Source of the DNA: Mobula hypostoma
Lineage: Eukaryota
Reading direction: 5' to 3'
Length of the DNA stretch: 64,000 bases
NCBI RefSeq assembly: GCF_963921235.1
Contig: NC_086097.1
Location: 26,290,001 to 26,354,000, forward strand
In this document: positions 3,658-61,895 of the stretch, one piece after another
Layout: every line of letters starts with the position of its first letter
Numbering within the stretch: the first letter of the stretch is position 1
Program-made: the position numbers and the translations under genes
Notes under the pieces: model-generated
The model's input: only the letters and a program-made list of their open reading frames with translations
Told to the model about the DNA's origin: nothing
The model's database searches: none

Positions 3658-4165
3658 TACAAGATTCTGCAGATGCTGGAAATCAAGAGTACCACACATG
3701 AGCACAATACTTTTTATCTGTTAATATTATTTTATGTGCTGTATGTGACATATGTACTGTGTTCTGCACCTTGGTCCCGAGCAATGCTGTTTCGTTTAGC
3801 TATACACATCTGTATGGTTGAATGACAATAAGCTTGAACTTGAACTTGAAAATGCTGGAGGAACTCAGCAGGTCAGGCAGCATCTATGGAGGGGAATAAA
3901 CAGTTGATGTTTCAGACCACAACCCTTCATTAGGACTGGAAAGGAAGGGGGACGAAACCAGAATGTTGAAATGTTGACTGTTCATCCCTTTGTAACACAC
4001 ACAAAATGCTGGAGGGACTCACCAGTTCAGGCAGCAGCAATGGAGGAGGATCATGAATCGCTATTTTGGGCTGAGTCCTTACATCAGGCTCATGATGAAG
4101 GATCTTGTTGAAAGGTCTTGGCCCGAAACATTGATTATTCACAGCTTTTTGTGTATGTTACTCTG
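3658..4165. mobile_element. Cluster of Penelope-like element terminal remnants in both orientations, with a small Rex-type tail insert
   Basis: Recurring aaaatgctggaggaactcagcaggtcaggcagcatctatgg motif; degenerate hammerhead cores at ~3900-3940 (-) and ~4105-4135 (+). Confidence 0.75.
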
Positions 4166-4314
4166 AAATTCATTTGGGACCTTAAATGTGTGTTTAAACA
4201 GGCAAGTTTACTCAGTGGTACCAAAAATGAACAAGAATTTAAATTAACGATTATTTTCTAACTCAGACTAAATGCTTGCTGATCAGAAAAATTTTTCATG
4301 TAAAATGACACTTA

Positions 4315-11721: not shown

Positions 11722-13003
11722 CCATAAGATAGAGGAGCAGAATTAGGCCATTCTATCCATTGAGTCTGATCCACCATTCCATCATGGCTTATCTATTATC
11801 CCTCTCCACCTCTTTCTCGTGCCTTCTCCCCATAACCTTTGATGTCCTTACTAATCAAAAACCTATCAACCTCTGCTTTAAATACACCAGTGACTTGGCC
11901 TCTATTGCTGCCTGTAGCGATGAATTCCACAGATTCACCACCCTCTGGCTAAAGCAATTCCTCATTGTATCTGTTCTACTTGGACATCCCTTTATTCTGA
12001 TGCTGTAGGAAACATCCTCTTCACATCCACTACTTCAATATTTGATGGGTTTCAATATGATCTCCCCTCGTTCTTCCAAACTCCAGTGAGTAAGGCCCAG
12101 AGCCATTAACTGCTTCTCACACATTAACCCTTTCATCCCTGGAATCATTTTAGTGAACTGGTTTTCTTCAGAAAAAACTGCTCACAATATTCCAACTGCG
12201 GTCTGACCAATCGCTTGTAAAGCCTCAGCATTACTCCTTTGCTTTTAAATTCTAGCCCTCAACTGACTCAACCTGCAAGTTAACCTTTAGAGAATCCTGC
12301 ATGAAGACACCCAAGTCTTTTCATCTGATTTTTGAATTTTCTCTGTTTAGAGAATAGTCTATGCCTTTACTCTTTTTACTAAAGTGCATGACCATACACC
12401 TCCCTGTACAAAATTCAGTCTGTTACTTCTTTGTCCAATCCCCAAACCCAAGTCCTTCTGTAGACTCCCTGCTTCCTCAACACTACCTGCTGCCCTTCCA
12501 CCTATCTTCGTATCATCCGCAAACCTGGCCACAAAGCATTCAATTCTGTCATCTAAATCACTGACATGGAACATGAAAAGAAGTGGTTTCAACACTGACC
12601 CCTGGGGAACACCACTAGTCACTGGCAGCCAACCAGAAAAAGCCCCCTTTATTCCCACTCTTTGCCTCCTGCCAATAAGCCATTCTTCAATCCATGCTAG
12701 TATCTTTCCTGTAATAACGTGGGCTGTTATTTTGTTAAGCAGTCTCATTTGCGGCAATGTGTCAAAGGCCTTCTGAAAATCCAAGTAAACAACAACTACT
12801 GACTCTCCTTTGTCTATCCTGCCTGTTATTTCCTCAAAGAATTCCAATAGATTTGTCAGCTAAGTACTCCAAAACCCCATCCTTAATAAAAGACCACAGC
12901 ATCTTCCCATCCACTTTAAGTCAAGCTAACTAGACAATAATTTCCTTTCTTCTGTCTTTCCTTTCTTCTTAAAGAGTGGAGTGACATTTCCAATTTTGCA
13001 ATT
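11722..13003 (-). mobile_element. CR1 LINE fragment including the RT domain, nested in another CR1
   Basis: ORF 12359-12847: VYLDFQKAFD...SGVPQGSVL.P.LF...FADDTK. Confidence 0.95.
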
Positions 13004-14111: not shown

Positions 14112-14994
14112 TGGTCCCAGATTGGTTTACTGAAATCTTCCACGAATCAGAACTTAAGATCCGAAAAATCAATGAAACCTTTAGATCGAGCGAATCAAAA
14201 CAGTCTCTCCTTGTCTTGAAAGTAATGAAAACGTAAGATAACATGCCTAGGTCTATCTGACCTAGACGAGTATGATGGGATTCTGTGAACACGATCCAGT
14301 AGCGGTGGTTGGTCAGGAAATACAGTAGGGAATGCATCTTTTAAAAGTTGAGAGAAATATTTCATGGGGTTATTAGCTTCAACAGCTTCCCTCACGCCAA
14401 TCATTCGTAAATTCTGCCGTCGCATTCTAGATTCCAAGTCAGAGTTTTTAAAAGTCAAAAAGTCAAGTTTCTTCTTCATTACATTAATTGTTTCTTCGAT
14501 TTTCCCCATCTTAAGCTCACTTTGTTGCGCGAATTTTTGAAGATCAGATATAGCCGACTGATGTTCCGCAATAAATGTTTGCATCTTATCCATTGAATCG
14601 GCAATTTTCTGGAAATTAGTTGAGATTTCCGTATGAATCAGGTCTTTAACAAAGCCTGCAATTTCCGTACGAATCATCTCCCTAACAGAGGTTGAAATTT
14701 CCCTCTGAATTAACTCCGATATCGCTTTCAAAGTCACCGGTGATTCAGTCGGGGGGAGATCCGTAGCTTTCGGTTTAACCGGAGGTTTACCATCCTTGCC
14801 GTTTTTCCCGTTCTTAGACATAGCAGATCTAAGTATCATCCAATTGTCAGAGAATTCAGTTTAATTCAAAGTATTGTAAAAAATTGATGCCTTAATGGTT
14901 AATTAAAGTATAGCTGACCATAGAGAAAAAAAACTCAGAGGTAATGGAGCGAGTCAAGAACGCGACTTCATTCCATGAGCGCTACCGGAAGTCC
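14112..14994 (-). mobile_element. L1-clade LINE 5' portion (5' UTR + truncated ORF1) with 17-bp TSD
   Basis: Coiled coil then ESRMRRQNLRMIGVRE...LDRVHRI...RPRHVILRFHYFQDKE (L1 ORF1p RRM-like); starts ggacttccggtagcgctcatgg; TSD ccggagtatccagtggt at 14095-14111 and 14995-15011. Confidence 0.92.
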
Positions 14995-15274: not shown

Positions 15275-15800
15275 TTAGATTTCAGATTTACTTGACACAT
15301 GTAGATCGAAACATACAGTGAAATGTGAAATGCATTGTTTGCATTAATAACCAACACCCCCAGGGATGTGGAGGGGTTGCAGCTGCAAGTGTTGCTACAC
15401 ATTCCAGTACCAATGTAGTGTGCCTCCAATGCCTGGCAAAACAACACAGAGCACAACAGAACAGAACACTACAAGCAACAGAACAACAATAGCGAAACAA
15501 GCCCCATTCTCCCAACAGACATACACACAGTCCTTCAATCCCAGAACAGGCCATCTTCAGCCTCCAGTCTGCAGCAGACTCAGACCTGCAAGCATGGGGC
15601 ATTTTACTTGCCCAGCAGACTCACAGAGACTTGTGGCACCAGCCATCAGGCCTCGACTTCTGATTGACCTTCAGTATTGACCCCAGGACTCACCAATTAT
15701 GACAAATGAGGACATTTACTGAGGGCCCCTAACACTAGGCCTCAATCACCAGACTTGCTGATGACAGGAAACCGAACGCTAGGCCTCTATGAATGGTCTT
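15275..15800 (-). mobile_element. Non-coding retroposon with the SINE-shared 3' tail
   Basis: Homologous to 18395-19060 and 39465-39880. Confidence 0.7.
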
Positions 15801-16157
15801 GCTGATTCACACACCTAATGGGTCACGCCCCTCATTCTTCCAGCCCATACAGAACTCTAATCTGAGAGTCCACCAACAATTTGCTAAACTGGGTTGGGAG
15901 CCACCAGCCCTCGTCCTCAGAATAAGAATCAAAATCAGATTTAATATCACTGCCATATGGCGTGAAATTTGTTGTTCTGCGGCAGCAGTCAATGGCAATG
16001 CATAATAGTTTTTAAAAAACTATAAATCACAATAAGAAATATGCATAAAAATTAAATTAAGTAAGTAGTGCAAAATGAGAAAAAACAGAGAGGTGGCGTA
16101 CGTGAGCGTACTGTCCATGAAGAAATCTGTTCCTAAAAGCTGTTCTTACAATGTTGA

Positions 16158-16368
16158 CACGAGGAAATCTGCAGATGCTGGAAATTCAAGCAACACACAC
16201 ACACACAAAATGCTGGTGGAACGCAGCAGGCCAGGCAGCATCCATAGGAAGAGGTACAGTCGACGTTTCGTCCTGACGAAGCGTCTTGGCCCGAAACGTC
16301 GACTGTACCTCTTCCTAGAGATGCTGCCTGGCCTGCTGCATTCCACCAGCACTTTGTGTGTATGTGTG
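16158..16368 (+). mobile_element. PLE-derived hairpin insertion containing a hammerhead ribozyme motif
   Basis: Inverted arms of ~75 bp; CTGACGA...GAAACGTC core; 17-bp TSD with 2 mismatches at 16141-16157 and 16369-16385. Confidence 0.85.
16270..16303 (+). ncRNA. Minimal type-I hammerhead ribozyme motif (PLE type)
   Basis: gtc-CTGACGA-a-gcgtcttggccc-GAAAC-GTC-gac: stem I gtc/gac, stem II with one mismatch, GUC cleavage triplet. Confidence 0.7.
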
Positions 16369-18394
16369 TGTTCCTAAAATGTTGAGTGAGTGTCTTCAGG
16401 CTCCTGTACCTCCTCTCTCATGGTAGCAATGAGGAGAAGGCATGTCCTGCACAATGGGGGTCCTTAAAGATGGATGCCGCCTTTTTGAGGCATTGCCTTT
16501 TGAAGACGTCGATGCTGGGGAAGCTAGTGTCCATGATGGAGCTGGCTGAGTTTACAACTTTCTGCAGGTTTTTTTTCAACCCTGTGCAGTGGCCCCACCA
16601 GACTATGATGCAGCCAGTTAGAATGCTCTCCACGGAACACTTGTAGAAATTTGTGAAGAGTATTTGCTGACATATCAAGACTCCCCAAACTCCAATGAAA
16701 TATAGCCGCTGCCATACCTTCTTCGTAATTGAATCAATATTTTGGGGCTCAGGATATATCTTCAGTGACACTGACATCCAGGAACTTGAAACTGCTGATC
16801 CCTTGATGAAGACTCGTGAGTGTTCCCTCAACTTCCCCTTCCTAGAGTCCACAATCACAGTTCCTTGGTTTTACTGAGTGAAAGGTTGTTGTCACAATAC
16901 CACTCAACCAGCTGATCTGCCTCACTTCTGTAGGCCTCCTGGTCAACACCTGAAATTCTACCAGCAATAGCTGTGTCACCGGGAAACTTGTAGATGCTGT
17001 TGGAGTTGTGCATAGCCACACAGTCAGGGGTGTAGAGAAAGTAGAGTAGTGGGCATAGCAGGCATCCTTAAGGCTCATCAGTGTTAACTGTCAGATATTA
17101 CTTCCGATCCACACTGACAGTGGTCTCCCAGTGAAAAGGTCAAGGATCTAGTTGCAGAGGGAGGTATAGGGGCCCAGGTTTTGGAGCTTGTTGATTAGTA
17201 CTAAGGGTATGATGGTGTTGAACACTGAGCTGTAATCAATGAACAGCAGTCTGATGTAGGTATTGCAAGGCCAAGCGGAGAGCCAGTGAGATTACATTCA
17301 CTGTAGACTTATTGGAGCAATAGGCAAACTGCAACAGGTTCAGATCCTTGCTTAGTCAGGAGTAGATTCTGGCCCTGACCAACCTCTCAAAGCTTTTAAT
17401 CACAGCAGATGTGAGTGCAACCGGGTGAGGGTTGTTGAGGCAGCTCACCCTGCTCGGGCACTGGTAGCTGGCACCCTTTTGAAACAGGTGGGAACCTCTA
17501 ACTGCAGCAGTGTGAGACCGAAATTATTCTTGAACACTCCCTCCAGTTGGTCGGCACAGGTTTTCAGTGCCCTACCAGATGCACCATCAGAGTCTGTTGC
17601 CTTGCGAGAGTTTGACGTAAGCCTCCGAGACAGAGATCACAGGGTCACCAGATGCTGAAGGGATTTACACAGGTGTAATTCTGTTCTCCCTTTCAAAGCA
17701 TGCATAAAAGGCGTTCAGCTCCACTGGGAGTGAAGTATCACAGCCATTTACGGTATTAGGTTTTACCTTGTAGAAAGTAATAGCCTGCAAACCCTGCCAG
17801 AGCTGACGTCCACCCGATTCCATCTCTAACTTCAATCGGAATTGTTTGTTCACTCTTAAGGTAGCTTCCTGCGAGCCATAGCTGAACTTAGTGCATTGTT
17901 CTGGATCACCAGTCTTGAATGCCACAGATCTAGCCCTCAGCAGACTATGAATCTCCTGGTTTATCCATGGGTTTTGGTTCGGGTATGTATGGTATGGTAT
18001 GTCTTGAAGGCACACACTCATCCGCACAGGTCTTGATGAAGTTGGAGACAACTGTGGTGTATTCATTCAGATCTGAAGAAGAATAGCTGAATATTATACT
18101 GGCCACCAACTCAAAGCTGGCCTGTAATTGCTCCCCTGCCTCCCTTGACCATACTTTAATGGTCTGACCACATATGTCCCACGTCTGCATTGCTGGCCTT
18201 TGAATGCAGAGCAGAGAATCTGGCCTGACCTGTAATTTCCTCACATTCCTAAATGCCTAAACTAACCACTAACTCCCCTCTCTGTCCCCAAAACTATTCT
18301 GTGTAAGTTATTTATAGCAGCACACCATGCAAAATTTGACACCAAGTTAAACAGAGAGTTATCAAAATTGGTTACAGGTTATCAAAATTGAGTT

Positions 18395-18632
18395 CAAGGC
18401 CTGGAGATTAGGGTCCTGTCATCAGCAAATCCTGGAGTCAATACCGAAGATCAAAGCCCCGAGGTCAAAGTCCGGTCGGTCACTCTAGAAATCGAGGCCC
18501 ATTAGCCAAAGTCCTGCGTCTGAGAGTCTACTGGGGAAGTTGGAGGCTTGATGTCTGCAAATCTGAGAGTCCAGTGGAGGTGGCCTATCCTGGATTGGAG
18601 GAGTGAGAGAGTGAGAGAGTGAGAGTGAGAGT

Positions 18633-18694
<62 letters not shown>

Positions 18695-18839
18695 GAGAGA
18701 GAGTGAGTGAGAGTGAGTGAGTGAGACAGAGAGTGAGAGAGAGAGAGTGAGTGAGACAGAGAGTGAGAGAGAAAGTGAGAGAGAGTGAGTGAGTGAGAGA
18801 GTGAGGAAGTGAAAGAGAGAGAAGGGGGGAGAGAGAGAG

Positions 18840-18885
<46 letters not shown>

Positions 18886-25075: not shown

Positions 25076-26469
25076 AATGTGAAAAATGTGTGTTAGGAAT
25101 GCCTGCCCTTACTTCCACATCACAGTCGGCATAACAACAATACTGATTTGATCAGCCTTAAAGTTTATCCCTGTAAGGTACACAAATAAAAGCTATTTAA
25201 AATACAAACTTGGGTGAGTTTATTTAGATTTATTAATCACATATATATTGAAACAGAGTGAAATGTGTTGTTTGCGTCAGCAACCAACACAGTCTGAGGA
25301 TGTACCGGGGGCAGCCTGCAAGTGTCACCACACTTCTGGTGCCAACAGAGCATGCCCATAATATTCAGCAGTACACGCAGCCAACATAGACACAACTATA
25401 GTAAAACAATCAAGAGAAAGTCTGCAGATGCTGGAAATCCAAGTTAAACGCACAAAATGCTGGAGGAACTCAGCAGGCCAAGCAGCATCTATGGAAAAGA
25501 GTACAGTCGATGTTTCAGGCCAAGACAGTAAAACAAACCCCTTTCTACTAACCACCTCCCATGAGGGATCACTGACCTTGTCCTCAGTATTCGCCGACCA
25601 TGGTACTTGCCCTTCAGCATTGTAGGCCTTTGTCCTTAAGCACCTACCAAGCCAATCTCCATCCTCAGAGATCGCTAGAGTCTGAGATCTGAACCTGCCG
25701 AATAATTACTGCTACTTTATCCTTCCTAGCGATTTTGAAGCCATGGCATGCATATACAAATGTACAAAAGAAAAAAAACATTTTGTCGCTAAACCTCCTC
25801 ACCCCTGGTATAATGGTGCAAGGAAAGTACAGTTCCTGTTTTGTGAAGTGATGGGGAAGCGCAATTTTTCTCCTTTATAAACTGGAGAACAAGGGATGCA
25901 AGGCTCTGTGTCACAGTTCATATGTACTTGGAAAGGAAAAGTCTGTGGGGCTACCTGCTGCTTTGAATCAGCTCCAGTCCTGCTCCAGCAATGGCCAAAC
26001 ACTGGCTTGCTCCTCGCTCTTGGGGCCAGGCCATAACACCTTGATTCGGCCCATACATGCACGCTGTTGAGTTCTGTTCATTTGGGCTATGTCAGTATTT
26101 AGTAGGCATGCGCACGTTCCTTGTTATGCACATACATGCTGGGGAGGAAGGTGGGATTGTGGGGAAAACAGGTGTATTGAACAGAGACACTGAAAGTAAA
26201 GTTGTTGAAATGAAAAGAAAAACTTGTCTTTGTTGTTTGAGCATTGACACATGCCAAGCCACAACCGTCCTACACCTTCGAGACTTCAGTTTACATCGCA
26301 AAAATGCCAAGTCATAAAGGTGGTTCAAAAGCTCACCTCTGAAAGAGAAGTTAACAGGTTATCGATTGCAGTGAGCATTTTTGAGAAGTATGATTAAATA
26401 GAGTACTTAGTAGTTTTGTTTGCTGCCAGCAAGTCATCGCTGTGCTTCACCAGCATATTAAACCAGGTA

Positions 26470-28428: not shown

Positions 28429-28905
28429 TTGAACATCATTATTTCTCTAACATATGGTAATTTCTCCTTTCTCCCCTTCTCCATTTTTCCATTCCCCATT
28501 CTGGCTCCCCACTTAACCCTTCATTGCCCATCACCTCCTTCTAGTGCCCCTCCTCCTTCCTTTTCTCCCATAGTCCGCTCGCCTCTCCTGTCAAGATTCC
28601 TTCTTCAGTCCTCTACCTCTTCCACCTACCACTTCCCAGTTTCTTACATCATCTCCCCGCTCCCGGACCCACCCAGCTTCCCCCTCACCTCGTCTCATCT
28701 CTCACCTGCCAGCTTGTAGTCCTTCCCTTACCCCTAACTTCTAATTCTGGCTTCTTCCCTCTTCTGTTTTAGTCCTGATTCAGATTCATTTGATTTGTCA
28801 CGTGTAGCAACAAATACCGTGAAACGTGTCGTTTGCATTAACAACCAGCCTCCAGAGTTTTGTGTGTGTTCCTCAAGATTTCCAGCATTTGCAGAACCTC
28901 TTGTG
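28429..28905 (+). mobile_element. Penelope-like element 3' region (pyrimidine-rich UTR and terminal repeat)
   Basis: Same organisation as the reverse complement of 50095-50490. Confidence 0.7.
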
Positions 28906-29699: not shown

Positions 29700-30305
29700 T
29701 AAACCTGAGTTTATTATCACTGACATATGTTGTGAAATTTCTTGTTTTGTGACCCCAGTACAGTGCAATACATAGAAAAATTACTATTAGTTACATAAGA
29801 GATATATAACATCTAAATAAATAGTGCAAAAAGAGAGCAAAAACAGTGAGATAGTGTACATGAGTTTATGGGCAGTTCAGAAATCTTACAGCAGAGAGGA
29901 AGAAGCTGTTTCAAAACCACTGAGTGTGTGCCCCCAAGGCTCCGGTATTGCCTCCCTGATGGTGGTAACGAGAAGAGGGCATGTCTTGGTGGTGCTAGTC
30001 CTTAATGATTGATGCTGCCTTTTGAAGATACCCTTGATGGTGGGGAGGCTCGTGCTGTCTGAGTTTACAACCCTCTGCGGCTTTCACTGATCCTGTGCAG
30101 TGGCTCCTCCGTACCAGATGGTGATGCAACCAGTTAGAATGCTCACTGCTGTACCTCCGCATAAATTTGCAAGAGTTTTTGGTAACATAACAAACTGACT
30201 CAAACTCCTAATGAAATACAGCCGCTGACGTGCCTCCTTTATAACAGCACCAATATGCTGGGCCCACGATAAATCTTCAGAGGTGTTGACACCCAGGTAC
30301 TTGAG
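29700..30305 (-). mobile_element. Rex1/Babar 3' fragment
   Basis: KYLGVNTSEDLSW...ARQRLYFIRSL...SILTGCITIWYG. Confidence 0.85.
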
Positions 30306-36535: not shown

Positions 36536-36644
36536 TTATGAATCAGAAGAATTCCAGGAACTGAGCTCATATTATATCACTGCAGCATGAGAATGTGACT
36601 ACAGTGTTTTTTTTAAAAAAAGCAAAAATCTGATCTCATAACTA

Positions 36645-36835
36645 CACACACAAAATGCTGCTGGAAGTCAGCAGATCAGGCAGCATGAAATGGAACTTGA
36701 CAGAGTCCTGATGAAGGGTCTTGGCTGAAATGTTGACTGTTTATTCCCCTTCATAGGCCTGACCTGCTGAGTTCTTCCAGCATTTTGTGCATACTGTTGC
36801 TCTGGAGTTCCAGCACCTACAGAAACTATTGTGCT
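36645..36835 (+). mobile_element. PLE-derived hairpin with a hammerhead core
   Basis: agtc-CTGATGA-agggtcttggct-GAAA-tgtt-gact at 36704-36738, between inverted arms. Confidence 0.75.
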
Positions 36836-37096
36836 TCTGAATTCATAGCTGCCAATTTTCATTATGATAGAAAATAGTTAACCTATACTTCACCTACAGC
36901 CTCATAGGCTCTGCAATGTTTCACTCCAATTCCACAGGGAACATGCTTATCAAGTATTGTGAGGCTCTCAAAATTATTTGTGATTGTTGTGTAATGCAGT
37001 CCAAGACAACGACAACTACAATCAGAGAATAACTTAAAAAAAGATTTCTTCTGATAACAGCAACCAAAAATATCAAAAACATACTCTCAAAAACTT

Positions 37097-41671: not shown

Positions 41672-42335
41672 AAACACAGGAGATTTTGCAGATGCTGGAA
41701 ATCTTGAGTAACGCACATAAAATGCTGCAGGAACTCAGCAAGCAGGCTGCATCAATGGAGGGGAATAACAGTCGACGTTTCAACAAGACTTGTCTCTAGT
41801 TCCCCAGCTGGTTAGGCAGCATCTACGGACAGGATTAAAGAATCGATGCTTTGAGCTGAGATAATTCATCCTGACGAAGGGGCTCAGCTCAGAACGTTAA
41901 CTCTTCATTCCTCTCCATAGATGCTGCCTGACCTGTTGAGGTTCTCTAGCACTATATGTGTGTTGCTCTGGATTTCCAGCATCTACAAAATCTCTTGTGT
42001 ACCTGTTTCCCCTCCTCCCCCTTTCTCCCATAGTCCACTGTTCTTTCCTTATCAAATTCCTTCTTCTTCAGGCCTTTACCTCTTCCACTATCCCTTCCCA
42101 GCTTCTTACTTCATCCGCCCCTCCCCTCTCACTCACCTTCCCCCCTCACGTGGTCTCACCCCGCAGTTTATGCTCCTTCCCCTCTGCCCTCCCCACCATT
42201 AAGGCTGTACATCATATGTTCTAAATGGGTTAGAGAAAAAGACCCACAATATCTGCACTGAACACAATGCCAAATAACCCACCCACCCACCTACCAGCTT
42301 GCACTCCTTCCCCTCCCCCAACCTTCTGGTAATGT
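41672..42335. mobile_element. PLE remnants (hairpin and pyrimidine-rich UTR)
   Basis: Inverted arms; degenerate cctgacgaaggggctcagctcagaacgtt core at ~41870-41898. Confidence 0.75.
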
Positions 42336-45470: not shown

Positions 45471-46088
45471 TTTAGGGTTTATATATTCTACACACTTAAC
45501 ATGGGGTCAGAAAACAAGGATAACAGGGGATTTGGAGCGGGGGAAGAAAATTTAAGATAATTCACCTGGCAGAATATCAATGTGATTGACCAATTCTGAA
45601 GCTTGTTCTACATCCATGCTGTTTTATTTTCTACCAGTGTTAACAGGAGGAAAAAGTGTTACACAGGAAGCTAATCTTTTGCATCTCATGCCCAGGAGAA
45701 TGAAGTTAGTGCACATCATAATCAAGACTCAAAATACTTTATACTGACACATAAACCAATGGTGCTGAAAACTATGTCATTCAGAGAACGATTCCATATC
45801 ATACCCACTCCGACAACCTGAACTGCTGTAACAAAGATCTCCACCTCCACCAAATATAACTTCGCCTGACATTATCTAGAGAGCTGCTGATGTCACGTGG
45901 ACTGAGAGAAGGCGATGAGTGTTATAACAGACAGAGTGCGCGTGGGCAATTATAGTTGCATCCCCTAACCAACAAAGTTATATCCTGAAAAACAACTGAA
46001 ATTTACACTGGATTGGTTTATTATTGTCTGCACTGAGATACAGTAAACTGCTTTTGTTTGTGTGTAACCCAGACGGATCATGCACGTA

Positions 46089-46286
46089 ACACACACAAAA
46101 TGCTGATGGAACTCAGCAGGCCAGGCAGCATCTATGGAAAAAAGTACAGTCGACGTTTGGGGCCGAGACCCTTCAGCAGAGTCCTGTACTTTTTTCCATA
46201 GATGCTGCCCGGCCTGCTGAGTTCCTCCTGCATTTTGTGTGCGTGTTGCTTGGATTTCCAGCATCTGCAGATTTTCTCTTGTCTGA
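46089..46286 (-). mobile_element. PLE-derived hairpin insertion with a mutated hammerhead core
   Basis: Inverted arms of ~60 bp; TSD gatcatgcaYgta at 46076-46088 and 46287-46299. Confidence 0.85.
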
Positions 46287-46484
46287 GATCATGCATGTAT
46301 AATTAATTGAGACAGTAAAAAGAACATAGTGCTATGGGAAAGTGAAGTGTAGGTAGTTAAATAATTAGCAAAGATCACAACAAGGTAGACTGGGAGATCA
46401 AGAGTTCATCTTTTAGCTTATGATACAGCACAGATAACAGAAACAAAATGCATAATTATTGAAAAGAAATGTAGTCATATATAA

Positions 46485-50094: not shown

Positions 50095-50490
50095 GAAAAC
50101 CTGCAGATGCTGGAAACCTGAGCAACACACACAAAATGCTGGAGGAACTCAGCATCTAGGAAAAGAGTAGTCAATGTTTTGGGCCGAAACCTTTCAAAAG
50201 GACTGGAGAAAAATAACTGAGGAGTAGATTTAAAAGGTGGGAGGAGGGGAGAGAGAGAGAAACACAAGGTGATGGGTGAAACCTGAAGCGGGAGAGATGA
50301 AGTGAAGAGCTGGGAAGTAAATTGGTGAAAGAGACATGGAAGTAAGAAAAGGGGAGGGGAGCACCAGAGAGAGGCGATGGGCGGGCAAAGAGGGAAAGGG
50401 GATGGAAAATGGTGAAGTGGGGGGCATTACCAGAGGTTCGAGAAGTCAATGTTCCTACCATCAGGTTGTAGGCTACCCAAGTGGAATTCG
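50095..50490 (-). mobile_element. Penelope-like element 3' end
   Basis: Minus strand FHLGSLQPDGRNIDFSNLW* (PLE GIY-YIG C-terminus), pyrimidine-rich UTR, degenerate hammerhead, terminal repeat. Confidence 0.85.
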
Positions 50491-51263
50491 TTCAGTCACT
50501 GCACTGCACTTCAAGCCACTTTTTATAATGCTGTTTACATTGTAAATACATACTGGAATTTCTGTACAATTTATTCCATATCTCTACTTTAACAACTTTA
50601 TTATTACATAATTCTTTACTCTTATAATTGTTGAATGATTTTTTTTGTGTTGCCTGTCACACCAACACACCACAGCAAATTCCTGAACACAAGAAATGCT
50701 GGAAATCCTGAGTAACACACATAACATGCTGGAGGAACTCAGGAACTTAATAAAACTCATAATTCCTGATAAAGGATCTTGGCCCAAATTGTCGACTGTT
50801 TATTCCTCTCCATAGATGCTACCTGGCCTGCAGTGTGCCCCAGCATTTTGTGTGTTACAGTAAATTCCTAATACATATAAATGCATATGGTGAATAAAGT
50901 CGATCCTTGAGTTCAGACTATTAATAGTCAAACAATGTGCATATAAACAATTACAACCACAGCCAAGTTTCTGGTTGCCACGAGGCCTGTACAAGGCAAA
51001 AACTACAATGCCTTCAAAGGAGGACTCTGAACTCAGTTCACTCTCAGCCCAAAGTAAGGTGTACACGTTCAGCGGCTGACTCCGTAGGAACTAAATGGCG
51101 TTGTCTCTCCTAGAGTTAACATCGCACTTCAATGACAGCATTGCCAAAGGCCATCGACCACATCACAAGTACATTACATATCAGATGATACCACTCCAAT
51201 TGGCAGAGGGTGAAACAGATCAGTGTTACGACTGGCTTCAAAGTACATAAACGTCACCATACA

Positions 51264-56302: not shown

Positions 56303-57321
56303 ATGGGCTCCTCTAAGCAGCTGCTGAGCACTCTGAAATTAAAATAAATGATGCCCACAAAGCAGGAGAAGGTTATAAGAAGATAGCAAAGCGTTTTCAG
56401 GTCGTCATTTCCTCAGTTCGTAATGTAATTAAAAATGGCAGTTAACAGGAACGGTGGAGGTCAAGTTGAGGTCTGGAAGACCAAGAAAACTTTCCAACAG
56501 AACTGCTCGTAGGATTGCTAGAAAGGCAAATCAAAACCCCCGTTTGACTGCAAAAGACCTTCAGGAAGATTTAGCAGACTCTGGCGTGGTGGTGCACTGT
56601 TCTACTGTGCAGCGACACCTGCACAAATATGACCTTCATGGAAGAGTCATCAGAAGAAAACCTTTCCTGTGTCCTCACCACAAAATTCAGCGTCAGAAGT
56701 TTGCAAAGAAACATCTAAACAAGCCTGATGCATTTTGGAAACAAGTCCTGTGGACTGATGAAGTTAAAATAGAACTTTCTGGCCGCAATGCGCAAAGGTA
56801 TGTTTGGAGAAAAAAGGGTGCAGATTTTCATGAAGAGAACACCTCTCCAACTGTTAAGCACAGGAGTGGATCGATCATGCTTTGGGCTTGTGTTGCAGTC
56901 AGTGGCAGGGGGAACATTTCACTGGTATAGGGAAGAATGGATTCAATTAAATACCAGCAAATTCCGGAAGCAAACATCACACCATCTGTAAAAAAGCTGA
57001 AGATGAAAAGAGGATGCTTCTACAACAGGATAATGATCCTAAACACACCTCAAAATCCACAATGGACTACCTCAAAAGGCGCAAGCTGAAGGTTTTGTCA
57101 TGGCCCTCCCAGTCCCCTGACCTGAACATCATCGGAAATCTGTGGATAGACCTCAAAAGAGCAGTGCATGCAAAACGGCCCAAGAATCTCACAGAACTAG
57201 AAGGCTTTTGCAAGGAAGAATGGGTGAAAATCCCCCAAACAAGAATTGAAAGACTTTTAGCTGGCTACAGAAAGCGTTTACAAGCTGTGATACTGCCAAG
57301 AGAGGTGTTACTAAGTACTGA
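56303..57321 (+). pseudogene. Tc1 DD34E transposase pseudogene (frameshifts, a stop, catalytic E replaced by G)
   Basis: GRPRK, WTDE, QQDNDPKH, WPSQSPDLNII(G)NLW; 34 residues between the second D and the E position. Confidence 0.95.
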
Positions 57322-57544
57322 CCATTCAGGGTGCCCAAACTTTTGCTTCAGGCCCTTTTCCTTTTTTGTTATTTTGAAACTGTAAAAGATGGAAATAAAA
57401 AAGTAATCTTGCTTAAAATATTAAAGGAATGTGTCATCTTTAACCTTATGCCTTTTGGAAATCAGGTCACCTTCACTTAGCTATTCACAGTAACAGAAAT
57501 TTTGACCAGGGGTGCAGAAACTTTTACACACCACTGTACATTTC

Positions 57545-57980
57545 TTCTAGCTCTCTAGTATACAGAGAAAGAAAATGGAATGGCACTGTAGTGAGGGGAA
57601 AGATGGGTGAGCGGAGAGCGGTGGGGAATGAAGTAAGAAACTGGGAAGATAGTGCAAGAGATAAAGGGCTGAAGAAGAAGGAATTTGAGAGGAGAGAAGA
57701 ATAGACCTTGGAAGAAAGGGAAGAAGTTTAGCCACAGACACAAGAGAGACTGCAGATGCTGGAGAACTTGAATAACACACACAAAATGCTGGAGGAACTC
57801 TGCACATCATGCAGCATCTCTGGAGAGGAATGAACAGATGACATTTTAGACTGAGTCTCTAAAGGGGGCCGCCGCCCAATTTCTTTCCAGCCCTGATGAA
57901 GTGTCTCAGCCCAAAGCATGACTTTTTATTCTCCTCACAGATGCTGCCTAACATGCTGAGAACCCCCAGCATTGTGTGTG
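57545..57980. mobile_element. PLE remnants with hairpin
   Basis: Purine-rich reverse-complement UTR, inverted arms, cctgatgaagtgtctcagccc core. Confidence 0.7.
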
Positions 57981-59059
57981 TGGATCTAACCAAGAGTGTT
58001 CAATATGTCCGAAGAAAAGGCTCCAGAATAATTACAGATGCTACTAATAACTTTTCTTTCAGGATCATGAATACAAAATCAATTACTGTTAACATTCTTC
58101 TGAGAGACTATTTATTCTTGTGTATAGGTTGTCAAATTCCTGTTTGTGGAAATGTGGAGCAAGAGACAATAGTGCCATTTTCTTAGCAGTCTGACTGGCA
58201 GGAGGAGCAAAAACACTTAAATATCTATATAAAGGAAAGATTCTATCCAACAGCTCGACAGTTGTGAAAAAGACTCAGTTTGTCTGCTTTAATCACATGA
58301 CCCATTGAGGAATGGCGCTGTTGGGCCCTGGTGGGTCCAGGAAACACTGCTGAGCCAGAATAGGGAATGGAAAAAGAGAGAATGGAGAACAGGGAGAAGT
58401 TAAAGAAATTGATATTCATGTCATCAGGTTTGGAGGCTACCTAGACAGAAAATGAGGTGTTCTCAATTAAGTTGAAGCACCCTGTCTTCCGATGCATTTT
58501 CACTTGAGTTAATACAGCTCACTCACATCACATCTTCCAGCAAGCAAAGCAACAAAGGTAAATACAATCATAAAAAAATCAAAAACTACTGGACACATCT
58601 TGTAAAATTGTAAAATAAAAAATATTATTTGGAAGTTGACTACAAATCCAGTGCCCAAGCCAAAATTTTACCCTTTTTATTAGCTAGAGAAAATCAGCAC
58701 GACGTCTTTTTTTTGAGTTGAACATCTCTGCTTTTATAATTAACCTGCTGAATAAATCTAATGAAATACTGAAGTAAGTTCATCTGCAGTTGGTCAAAAG
58801 TCTTATACACAGCTGTTTCCTAGTTTAGAAAAAACAGAACAAGGTAAATTTCTATTTTCATTTATGTACAACAGATATGCCAGTTTAGCAGCATATTGAG
58901 GAGATGTAAGCTATTTTTTTTCTGCTAATACAATGATCCCAGTAATTCAATTGTCAATGAACACTCCAGGAATACTTCAGAAGTTTATTGTTTTTAAAGA
59001 ACTGCTATTCATTTTTGTATACATGCTCTTAACTATCCAGTAGTCTGTAGTTTTTGTAT

Positions 59060-59725
59060 CACACACAAAATATTAGAGGAACTCAGAAGGTCAGGGAGCA
59101 TCTATGCAGGGGAATCAACAGTTGACATTTTGGACTGAGACCCTTCATCAGGAAAGGAAGGGGAAAGGTGAGCTGGGGGAGGAGGAGTACAAGCTAGCAG
59201 GTGATAGGTGAAGTCAGTGGGGGGAAGATGAGTGGGTATAGGGAAGAAGATAAGTAAAAAAAAACTGGGTGACTGGTGGAAAAGATAAAGAGCTGAAGAA
59301 GAAGGCATCTGATAGGAGAGTGGACCATGGGAGAAAGGGAAAGAGGAGGGGCACAAGAGGGAGGTGATAGGCAGGTGAGGAGAAGAAAAGGGGTGAGAAG
59401 GGAGCCAGAATGGGCTGAAGGTAATGGCCATCTCTGATGGCTACATGAAGCTGAGAATAGTCGAGAAACCTAATGTAAAGAGCATTATTCTAGGAAATGC
59501 AAATTATCAATGGTCTTGCTTGCAGTGCCGTTTTGTAGCTGACACTGAAGAAGGAGGTGGTAGACAAGTGAGGAGAAGAGAATGGGGAATGGAAAAAGAG
59601 GGATGGTGACGGGAAGAGAAATCTGATATTCTTGCTGTCAGTTTGGAGGCTACCCAAATGGCTTATGAGGTATTCCCCCTCCGACATGAGAGAGGCCTCA
59701 TTGTGGTGGAAGAGGAGGCCATGGT
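59060..59725 (-). mobile_element. Penelope-like element 3' fragments
   Basis: EYLISHLGSLQTD..NI (GIY-YIG end); minus-strand cctgatgaagggtctcagtccaaaatgtc core. Confidence 0.8.
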
Positions 59726-59992
59726 TTTTGTATAATCCACACGCCATGTAATAATATTTATTGGCATAAAGAGGCCCAAAATCCCAAGATGAACAAATTT
59801 TTATTGTATCTTGCGTCAAGCAGCATCATGTTGCATAGTTTGATTAGTCCCTTGTGTGGACTACTTCAGAGTTAATTGCTTCCCAGAATAATCTGACATC
59901 ACATTTTTCATTTCATTAGATCTTACGTGTCTAATTGCTGAACATTTTACTACAAATAGGCTTTGTCATCATTCCTCTCTTGAAGATACAGA

Positions 59993-61895
59993 CCAGCACG
60001 GTAATGTAGTGGTCAGCAGCACACTTTTTGTAAGGAAGTTTTCCCCGTGACCCTGCGGGTTTCCTCCCACATTCCAAAGATTAGGGGTAAGGTTAGAGTT
60101 AGTGAACTGCGGCCATGCTACAATGGCGCCAGAAGCATGGTGACACTTGCGGGCTGCCCCCAGCACAATCCTCGCTGATTTGACTTGACACCAGTGACAC
60201 ATTTCCCTCTATGTTTCGATGTCATCACCATCATCAGGTGCCGTGCCCAGTTTGAGCTTTGACTGGCATGGCCCACACACTCCTGTTTCGGGTCAAGTGG
60301 ATCAATTCATTGGTATTCATTTCCAGTTCTCTGGCTGCTGTCTCCATCATCATTTGTCTTTGTCTTCCTCTTGCTTTCTTCCCTTCAATCTTTCCCATAA
60401 TTATCGTGCACTCTAACTCCTCTTTCCTAATTACATGTCTAATGAAGTTACATTGCTTTTTCATGATCTCATATATTATTTCTCTTTTTGTATTTGACAT
60501 CCTCATTAGATATTCGTTTCGTCCATGATATTCTTTGCATCCTCCTCAAAAACCACATCTCTGCTGCTACAATCCGTTTCCTCATGTTACTAGATATTGT
60601 CCAACATTCTGAGCCATAAAACATAACTGAATAAACGTAACATTTCAGTACTCTGAGGCGGGTTGTCATGCCTAGTTTAGTATTGGTCAGTATACTCTTC
60701 ATTCTTGTAAAGGTGTCTTTTGCCATCCCTATTCTTCTTTTGATGTTCATGTCACACCTGCCATCTGACGTTACCCAGCTTCCAAAGTAGCAAAAGTTCT
60801 GTACTTGTTTTATGTCTTCCCTGTTTATTCTCAGCCTACAGATAGGATTCACCTGCTTTTTGGATATCATCATGCATTGTCTTTTTGCAATTGATAGCTA
60901 GACCCATTTTTGCACTTTCTTCAACAACTATATCAATTAAGTTGTGTAGTTCTTCCTCCTTACTTGCAATTAACACAGTGTTATTCGTATATTTGAAATT
61001 ATTGATGTTTTTACCACCAACTTTGATTCCAAAGATGTCTCTTACTTTTTGTAATATTGTTTCACTGTACACATTAAATAAATCAGGGGAGAAAACACAC
61101 CCTTGTCTAACGCCTCTCTTGATTTTCGTAAACTGACTCACTTCTCCATTTATTCTTACAGCGGCAGTTTGTTCCCAGTACAGATTTCTGATTAGGCAGA
61201 GGTCTTTTGAATCTAGATCTAGAGTTTCCTGTAATACTTCAAATAACTTATTGTGCTTCACTTTATCAAATGCTTTTGTGTAGTGGATAAAACAAACAAT
61301 TTTTTTTGCACTTGAATAGCTCGTTCTGATAGTATCCTTAACATCAATATTGCGTTTCTTGTACCTTTGCCTTTCACAAAACCACATTGTTCTTTACCTA
61401 TCTCAGCTTGTATCTTACTTTTAGCTCTTGTCATCAAAATTCTTAGAAGTATCTTGGTGATATGACTCATTAAACTTATGGTCCTATGTAATTCACATTC
61501 TATTACTCCAGGTTTCTTAGGAAGAGTGATAAATACTGATTTTATATATCACTGGTAAAAAGCTCCTCTGTTTTTCAGGTGGATGTTTGAAAGCAAAGGA
61601 CGGTACCATTATCATGGAAAAAGGTGAGATTATGAACAAATGGACTGAGTATATTCAGGAATTGTTTGGAGACGATCGAGGCAAAAAAAAACAGAAATTA
61701 AGATGAACATTGAAGGTCCAAGTACTGTATTTTAAAATCTGAAGTTCGTAATGCAATAAATAAGATGAAGGAAAGGAAGCAGGTCCTGAAGAATTAGTAA
61801 TTGAACAAATTATCACCCTTGAAGATTATGGAATTGAAAAACTTACTGATATAATCAATGTTTCGATGTACATGAGACAAATAAAGCTAAACTTC
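59993..61895 (+). mobile_element. V-type SINE split by the RTE insertion
   Basis: Head and V-domain at 59993-60222; tail acatgagacaaataaagctaa resumes at 61870. Confidence 0.85.
60223..61857 (-). mobile_element. RTE-clade LINE with an inverted 5' segment
   Basis: CFI.Y.KAFDKV, GVRQGCVFSPDLFNVYSE, YGSECWT, GKIEGKKARGRQR; (GAT)n tail; 12-bp TSD atgtttcgatgt at 60211-60222 and 61858-61869. Confidence 0.95.

Follow-up and report, generated by a model that had tools for sequence, protein, structure and literature searches.

The 211-base palindromic insert at 16158-16368 of the window (the whole 64,000-nucleotide stretch of Mobula hypostoma contig NC_086097.1 analysed here) likely consists of two stunted Penelope-type 3′ ends placed head to head by one insertion event. 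We consider it quite probable that these 5′-truncated ends, which share one target-site duplication (TSD), were laid down in a single integration, with reverse transcription primed from both strands of the cut target. The hammerhead motif between them came from the parent element and is predicted to be inactive.

The inverted arms of this focal hairpin (16193-16270 and 16292-16369) are 78 nt long and 94% complementary, and they enclose a 21-nt loop. The computed fold has an energy of −150 kcal/mol (z −19.8). The initial annotation had described arms of about 75 bp around a hammerhead at 16270-16303, and both were recovered, with the core intact. Each arm is the 3′ end of the element, pointing outward. 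The arms are not equivalent, an asymmetry absent from the initial annotation: a 35-nt tail is present on one side only, the left arm has neither stem II nor CTGACGA, and the tail is missing from the right arm. The four letters that follow the right arm are compatible with the element and the TSD alike. Both arms carry a TG run of 7-8 units (16190-16206 and 16353-16372), compared with about four in most other copies.

The insert is flanked by 17-bp direct repeats that are identical at 15 of 17 positions, a score equalled by one of 300 random windows. The duplicated segment is single in all four aligned homologous copies of the host repeat, most clearly at 22k and 29.8k, which bears out the earlier reading of the duplication as a TSD. 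Runs X1, X5 and X9 each gave approximately 800-930 contigs with the empty-site context before 16369, and the repeat is thus a true TSD. The host repeat itself is likely a LINE relic; its frames give weak matches to PF09004. Immediately upstream, at 16128-16138, the start of the TSD recurs as a partial third copy of 11 bp, in a place where the host copies have approximately 18 other bases; this possibly reflects a local rearrangement during or after insertion. One contig of organism B extends 22 letters across the left junction, fewer than the 31 required, and was not scored as shared presence. Loose contig ends at 16199 are a mixture of tail and flank sequence and were not scored as start sites.

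Table 1. Features of the focal hairpin and of other family copies, in window coordinates. Literature in the table and the text is cited from excerpts of the sources.
Feature	Positions	Strand	Description
Older interspersed repeat hosting the focal hairpin	15951..16789	.	flanks match one continuous copy, 29721-30304
Left TSD	16141..16157	+	17 bp, 15/17 against right copy
Penelope-type tail	16158..16192	-	35 nt, left arm only; tails of 30-40 bp in PMC8557442, PMC11167929
Left arm, element 3′ end, antisense	16193..16270	-	runs through GTC cut site and GAAAC, then stops
Minimal type-I hammerhead motif	16270..16303	+	3-bp stem I, CTGACGA, extra A, stem II with C-C mismatch, GAAAC-GTC; descriptor from PMC4209133
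Right arm, element 3′ end, sense	16292..16368	+	ends at the tail-less end (TG run)
Right TSD	16369..16385	+	17 bp; single in empty host copies
Degenerate hairpin	3992..4175	.	right arm by eye only; not recovered by BLAST
Single tailed arm	25400..25536	-	perfect 10-bp TSD; 91% identical to both arms of second hairpin
Older hairpin	36629..36850	.	15-bp TSD (12/15); core letters intact, stem II damaged
Complex older hairpin	41674..42192	.	tails at both ends, adjoining body fragment; TSD not found
Second hairpin	46076..46299	.	13-bp TSD; tail-less arm left with mutated core (minus strand), tailed arm right
Single-armed copy	50095..50486	-	tail, body, last codons of endonuclease frame
Older hairpin	50672..50869	.	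13-bp TSD (12/13)
Older hairpin (57737-57982) with adjoining body fragment	57590..57982	.	TSD not found
Single-armed copy, ~660 bp	59050..59733	-	perfect 10-bp direct repeats; endonuclease C-terminus 59619-59723, pyrimidine-rich 3′ region, hammerhead relic, tail-less end

The core of the focal hammerhead reads CTGACGA, GAAAC and GTC between 16273 and 16300, in agreement with the CUGANGA, GAAA and NUH consensus. Cleavage is predicted after 16300, and the minimal helix III is the palindrome ACGT (16296-16299). The strict pattern matches twice in the window, where 200 first-order Markov simulations predict 0.055 matches. The core letters and the ACGT of the minimal type-I hammerhead proposed at the outset were found, and its stem II was not intact. 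The closing G-C pair and the extra A are present, and the second pair, G-C in the family majority, is C-C (16282/16291). Position 16282 is a G in 98% of the summed contig depth of the family; thus, the C that breaks the stem is private to the focal copy. A hammerhead search against Rfam, suggested as a check with the initial annotation, gave no hammerhead match up to E=1, and the chance matches were mir-2131 and GOLLD only.

Folding placed 16293-16305 in the long stem with P≥0.997. The model agrees with the earlier expectation that half of the ribozyme would be sequestered in the hairpin, the buried part being the 3′ half. The computed cost of freeing the core is 20 kcal/mol, or 31 kcal/mol with stem I enforced. 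With its stem II broken and the motif buried, the hammerhead, a known feature of Penelope-like elements, is predicted to be inactive in the focal copy. Core letters are intact in two of the ten arms that span the core, and the focal copy keeps all catalytic letters. Across these ten arms, changes were found at 10 of 100 non-CpG core positions, 53 of 378 flanking positions (P=0.32) and 33 of 80 CpG positions. These are the rates of neutral decay, and selection on the genomic copies is not evident. Scans with the hammerhead pattern elsewhere gave 0 and 1 match in metagenomes, 0 and 0 in viral contigs and 0 in prokaryote genomes. The single metagenome match (L001) shares 19 letters only.

BLAST within the window located family sequence at 16 loci, seven of which are hairpins of about 170-330 bp. 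At each of the remaining loci the family is represented by a single arm or by a longer copy, which extends upstream into pyrimidine-rich sequence. Of the 12 loci tested for a TSD, six have one of 10-17 bp (13, 13, 15 and 17 bp in the hairpins), and at the other six none was detectable. The TSDs are 68% AT, compared with 59% for the window. In each of X1, X5 and X9, between 66,000 and 88,000 contigs fall on the 1-kb stretch 15750-16800; contig counts and summed depth are read here as a sign of great abundance and not as copy number.

The second hairpin, reported in the initial annotation as an oppositely oriented copy at 46089-46286, does have inverted arms (46089-46149 and 46184-46244, 61 nt, 92%), a TSD matching at 12 of 13 positions and a hammerhead on the minus strand. 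Its core did not hold up, with two substitutions (CTGCTGA, CAAAC). It belongs to a different subfamily from the focal copy. At 46170-46190, one possible reading takes its tailed arm up to the 5′ edge of the hammerhead, with the whole core skipped between two 3-nt repeats. On this reading, both arms would end at the same hammerhead edge. At 41674-42192 and 57590-57982, a hairpin adjoins a body fragment of the same element in a partial-tandem-like arrangement. The family copies at 3666-3952 and 28460-28905 are interrupted by other sequence, probably later insertions. In one X11 contig (RNA by guess; depth ~2100) and one X5 contig (depth 12), an antisense arm passes into a sense arm at a junction unlike that of the focal copy, from 16228 to 16288. 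This joint is possibly another hairpin copy in an abundant transcript.

The TSD-flanked copy at 59060-59723 runs from the end of a reading frame through the pyrimidine-rich region and the hammerhead to the tail-less end. Its frame end is identical at 18 of 35 residues (51%) to residues 341-375 of protein P0004. This copy ties the hairpin sequence to a coding part; thus, the parent is a Penelope-like element. Three fragments in the window match the last 12-35 residues of P0004/P0009-type proteins. An exhaustive profile HMM search with the window fragments retrieved 17 proteins at E≤0.001, of which five were set aside (P0007, P0008, P0014 and P0015 as multi-stretch matches and P0002 as a partial one). 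The named matches (seven of the 17) are gene models of stingrays, skate and whale shark. P0004 and P0009 have CxxC/CxxY between the GIY- and YIG-like motifs and a CX2-5CxxC linker upstream. Both features are given as marks of Neptune/Nematis Penelope endonucleases in the excerpt of PMC8557442. The linker is present in these relatives, and the window copies end short of the linker region. Pfam GIY-YIG scores P0004 at E 0.002, which falls short of the curated threshold, and the endonuclease call therefore rests on motifs. Searches with a 41-residue endonuclease fragment gave no match by word search, Pfam, PHROGs, PDB or Atlas. The sequence evidence supports as the putative parent an abundant endonuclease-bearing (EN+) Penelope-like element with a GIY-YIG domain of the Neptune/Nematis type.

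The reverse transcriptase (RT) of the parent was absent from the 150 longest frames of the window; two RVT_1 matches lie outside the family loci. Among these 150 of 292 frames, only transposon-type domains were found and no host gene. No tRNA gene was found, and hence no tRNA-SINE head. Other transposon relics comprise an L1-type ORF1 domain (14198-14860), two LINE-type RT pieces (12362-12859 and 60839-61393) and a Tc1-type transposase in two frames (56433-57382). A compound GA/GT microsatellite of ~280 bp lies at 18601-18884. The endonuclease C-terminus is fused onto four of the retrieved gene models, P0001, P0003, P0005 and P0013 (VKORC1L1, NMUR1, ATP synthase c and LAMP-like), source names being known for P0001, P0003 and P0005 only. 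Exonisation or annotation error is possible.

A tailed arm is paired with a tail-less arm in six of the seven hairpins (P=0.06). In four of the seven, both young ones included, the contents of the arms are mutually exclusive, each having sequence that the other lacks. The two focal arms are 94% identical and the two arms of the second hairpin 91%, compared with 79-85% between the two hairpins. The two arms of each young hairpin thus belong to one subfamily. This test is readable in the two young hairpins only, the older ones being too decayed. The junctions differ in all seven hairpins, which, together with the single subfamily in each young hairpin, favors formation at insertion. The initial suggestion of a minimal inverted Penelope-like insertion, made independently at each site, is in line with these junctions, with the one-sided tail and with the endonuclease of the parent. 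The hammerhead cut site is crossed by 15 of the 19 arms, and the templates were therefore uncleaved. Only one of the 19 arms, an ambiguous one, begins at the cut, and hammerhead cleavage was rejected as the source of 5′ ends.

A sequence of steps can be proposed for the integration. The endonuclease would nick both target strands, 10-17 nt apart. One of the free 3′ ends would start a cDNA at the end of the RNA tail, and the other at an internal site approximately 35 nt upstream. Both cDNAs would be copied from uncleaved RNA through the hammerhead cut site and would stop after ~100 nt. The two cDNA ends would then be joined, with one shared base in the focal copy, and filled in. These steps are drawn from the end products and from in vitro work on a different clade, in which the anole element PAc cleaves and extends both target strands on unprocessed RNA, uses two start sites one tail apart and is a predicted dimer (PMC11167929). 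Several points count against this reading as a whole. In the excerpt of that work the RNA is described as AC-rich at the start site; here, either end of the sense strand is rich in UG. The likeness of the arms within a hairpin could also be explained by conversion. The lack of a detectable TSD at half of the loci tested and the absence of the parent RT from the window weigh in the same direction.

Dual priming alone also leaves a group of breakpoints unaccounted for. Six of the ten arms that span the core, each of them part of a hairpin, break off 0-4 nt before it. Against the downstream stopping rate, the chance of six such stops is 1e-6 to 6e-5, for an interval selected post hoc and with the breakpoints of old copies taken from an alignment. 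Long copies have a pyrimidine tract and AG at this stop point, and the excerpt of PMC4209133 describes a Drosophila element in which an intron ends at the start of helix I. As a lead and not a result, the core-edge stops may reflect a fixed RNA end or a splice site. We put forward tentatively, as possible rather than probable, a more specific form: both enzyme subunits would prime on the 5′-most terminal repeat of the RNA, and synthesis would end by run-off at a constant position 0-4 nt before the core. That position would be dictated by where the transcript starts, or by the pyrimidine tract and AG immediately upstream, which resemble a splice acceptor.

The main rival keeps the same parent and derives the second arm by self-priming, with the cDNA or an antisense RNA folding back near the hammerhead and being copied. 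Such a route is proposed for head-to-head ends of rotifer Penelope with junction palindromes (PMC3846280, excerpt). The hammerhead does offer short palindromes and complementary stem-I strands, and the junctions cluster there; the hairpin at 36.6k, in which one arm contains all of the other, is compatible with it. However, in four of the seven hairpins, both young ones among them, the tail is in one arm and the core in the other, so that neither is a plain copy of its partner, and the single-armed tail-less copies at 24k and 59k share their end point with the tail-less arms. We therefore consider self-priming unlikely. Lower still is the probability we give to a non-autonomous hairpin family, retrozyme- or MITE-like, copied as a unit with Penelope machinery. 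The proportion of hairpins (7/16 loci, about 170-330 bp), a junction with one side within 0-4 nt of the core in six of seven, and non-autonomous Penelope derivatives in the excerpted literature would all suit it. A unit copied as such does not explain junctions that differ in every hairpin, TSD lengths that are not fixed (13, 13, 15 and 17 bp), or two young hairpins from different subfamilies with tail and core arranged independently. The motif is present in none of the ten tandem-repeat rows of the window, and 406 X1 contigs diverge from the focal element at 16270 and continue in pyrimidine-rich sequence that resembles the body (among the 15 of 1467 joints listed; a rarer fixed junction is possible). 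The retrozyme-like alternative in the initial annotation finds no support: the motif is in no tandem array, the hammerhead is minimal and not canonical, and single-armed and long-bodied copies exist.

It is very improbable that the focal copy is a working or host-recruited RNA element, either a hairpin-gated ribozyme or a dsRNA signal in a host transcript. All catalytic core letters are kept, and either strand would give a stem of −150 to −164 kcal/mol. Against these stand the mismatch in stem II, a stem I of 3 bp, the calculated opening cost of 20-31 kcal/mol, core changes as in neutral decay, and the position of the copy in an older repeat. The least credible reading is that two unrelated insertions, or a later recombination, joined two single arms. 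The family is very abundant, and such elements are reported to insert side by side in the excerpt of PMC6765202, but a single TSD surrounds both arms in four of the seven hairpins, which largely refutes it. Furthermore, the focal copy has no host sequence between its arms, and the arms share subfamily letters. We therefore retain one integration with priming from both target strands as the preferred reading.

The inverted truncated partners, tails, TSDs and minimal hammerheads have all been described already for Penelope-like elements. EN+ elements (PMC8557442, PMC3846280 and PMC2377424, excerpts) share head-to-head inverted ends, a tail at one end, variable TSDs and heavy 5′ truncation, as well as a C-terminal GIY-YIG with the Neptune/Nematis linker, present in the relatives of the element here. 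They differ in that the halves here are ~100 nt and without coding sequence, and the rotifer examples have TSDs of 8-10 bp instead of 10-17 bp. The minimal type-I hammerheads of metazoan Penelope-like elements (PMC4209133) have CUGANGA and GAAA, the extra base before stem II, G10.1-C11.1 and a palindromic minimal helix III, as in this family. The excerpt reports paired motifs that derive from truncated elements and lie on opposite strands at distances of 100-700 bp, and names no cartilaginous fish. In Schistosoma, the hammerhead families have a stem II of 7-8 bp, compared with 4-5 bp here, broken in the focal copy. Cleavage of hammerhead dimers is reported in PMC5785218, as cited in the excerpt of PMC6765202.

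PAc, a Poseidon element of the green anole (PMC11167929), is alike in having two start sites, separated by one tail length and located downstream of the hammerhead, AT-rich targets and an uncleaved template. It belongs to another clade, has an AC-rich start region, and joined hairpin products are not described in the excerpt. Non-LTR retrozymes (PMC7229834; bioRxiv 10.64898/2026.07.22.740005) are likewise short and non-coding, with a type-I hammerhead, long TSDs and Penelope ancestry. According to the excerpts, they form head-to-tail tandems with mostly canonical hammerheads and circular RNAs, whereas the copies here are dispersed and inverted and have the minimal motif. Among the papers listed by searches of the open literature, a scope that takes in neither subscription papers nor repeat databases, none was on such stubs in cartilaginous fish or on twin priming by Penelope-like elements.

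By itself, the focal feature is of little consequence, being a defunct piece of a retrotransposon whose class is already known. The family is a very large natural sample for the question of how the inverted ends and tails of Penelope-like elements form, a process stated to be undefined in the excerpt of PMC8557442. One-sided tails, mutually exclusive arms and breakpoints at the hammerhead edge can separate dual priming from self-priming. If the fixed RNA end is true, tens of thousands of stubs would be a genome-wide readout of the formation of Penelope-like inverted ends. Wherever they are transcribed, hairpins of this kind would in addition provide a concentrated supply of dsRNA.
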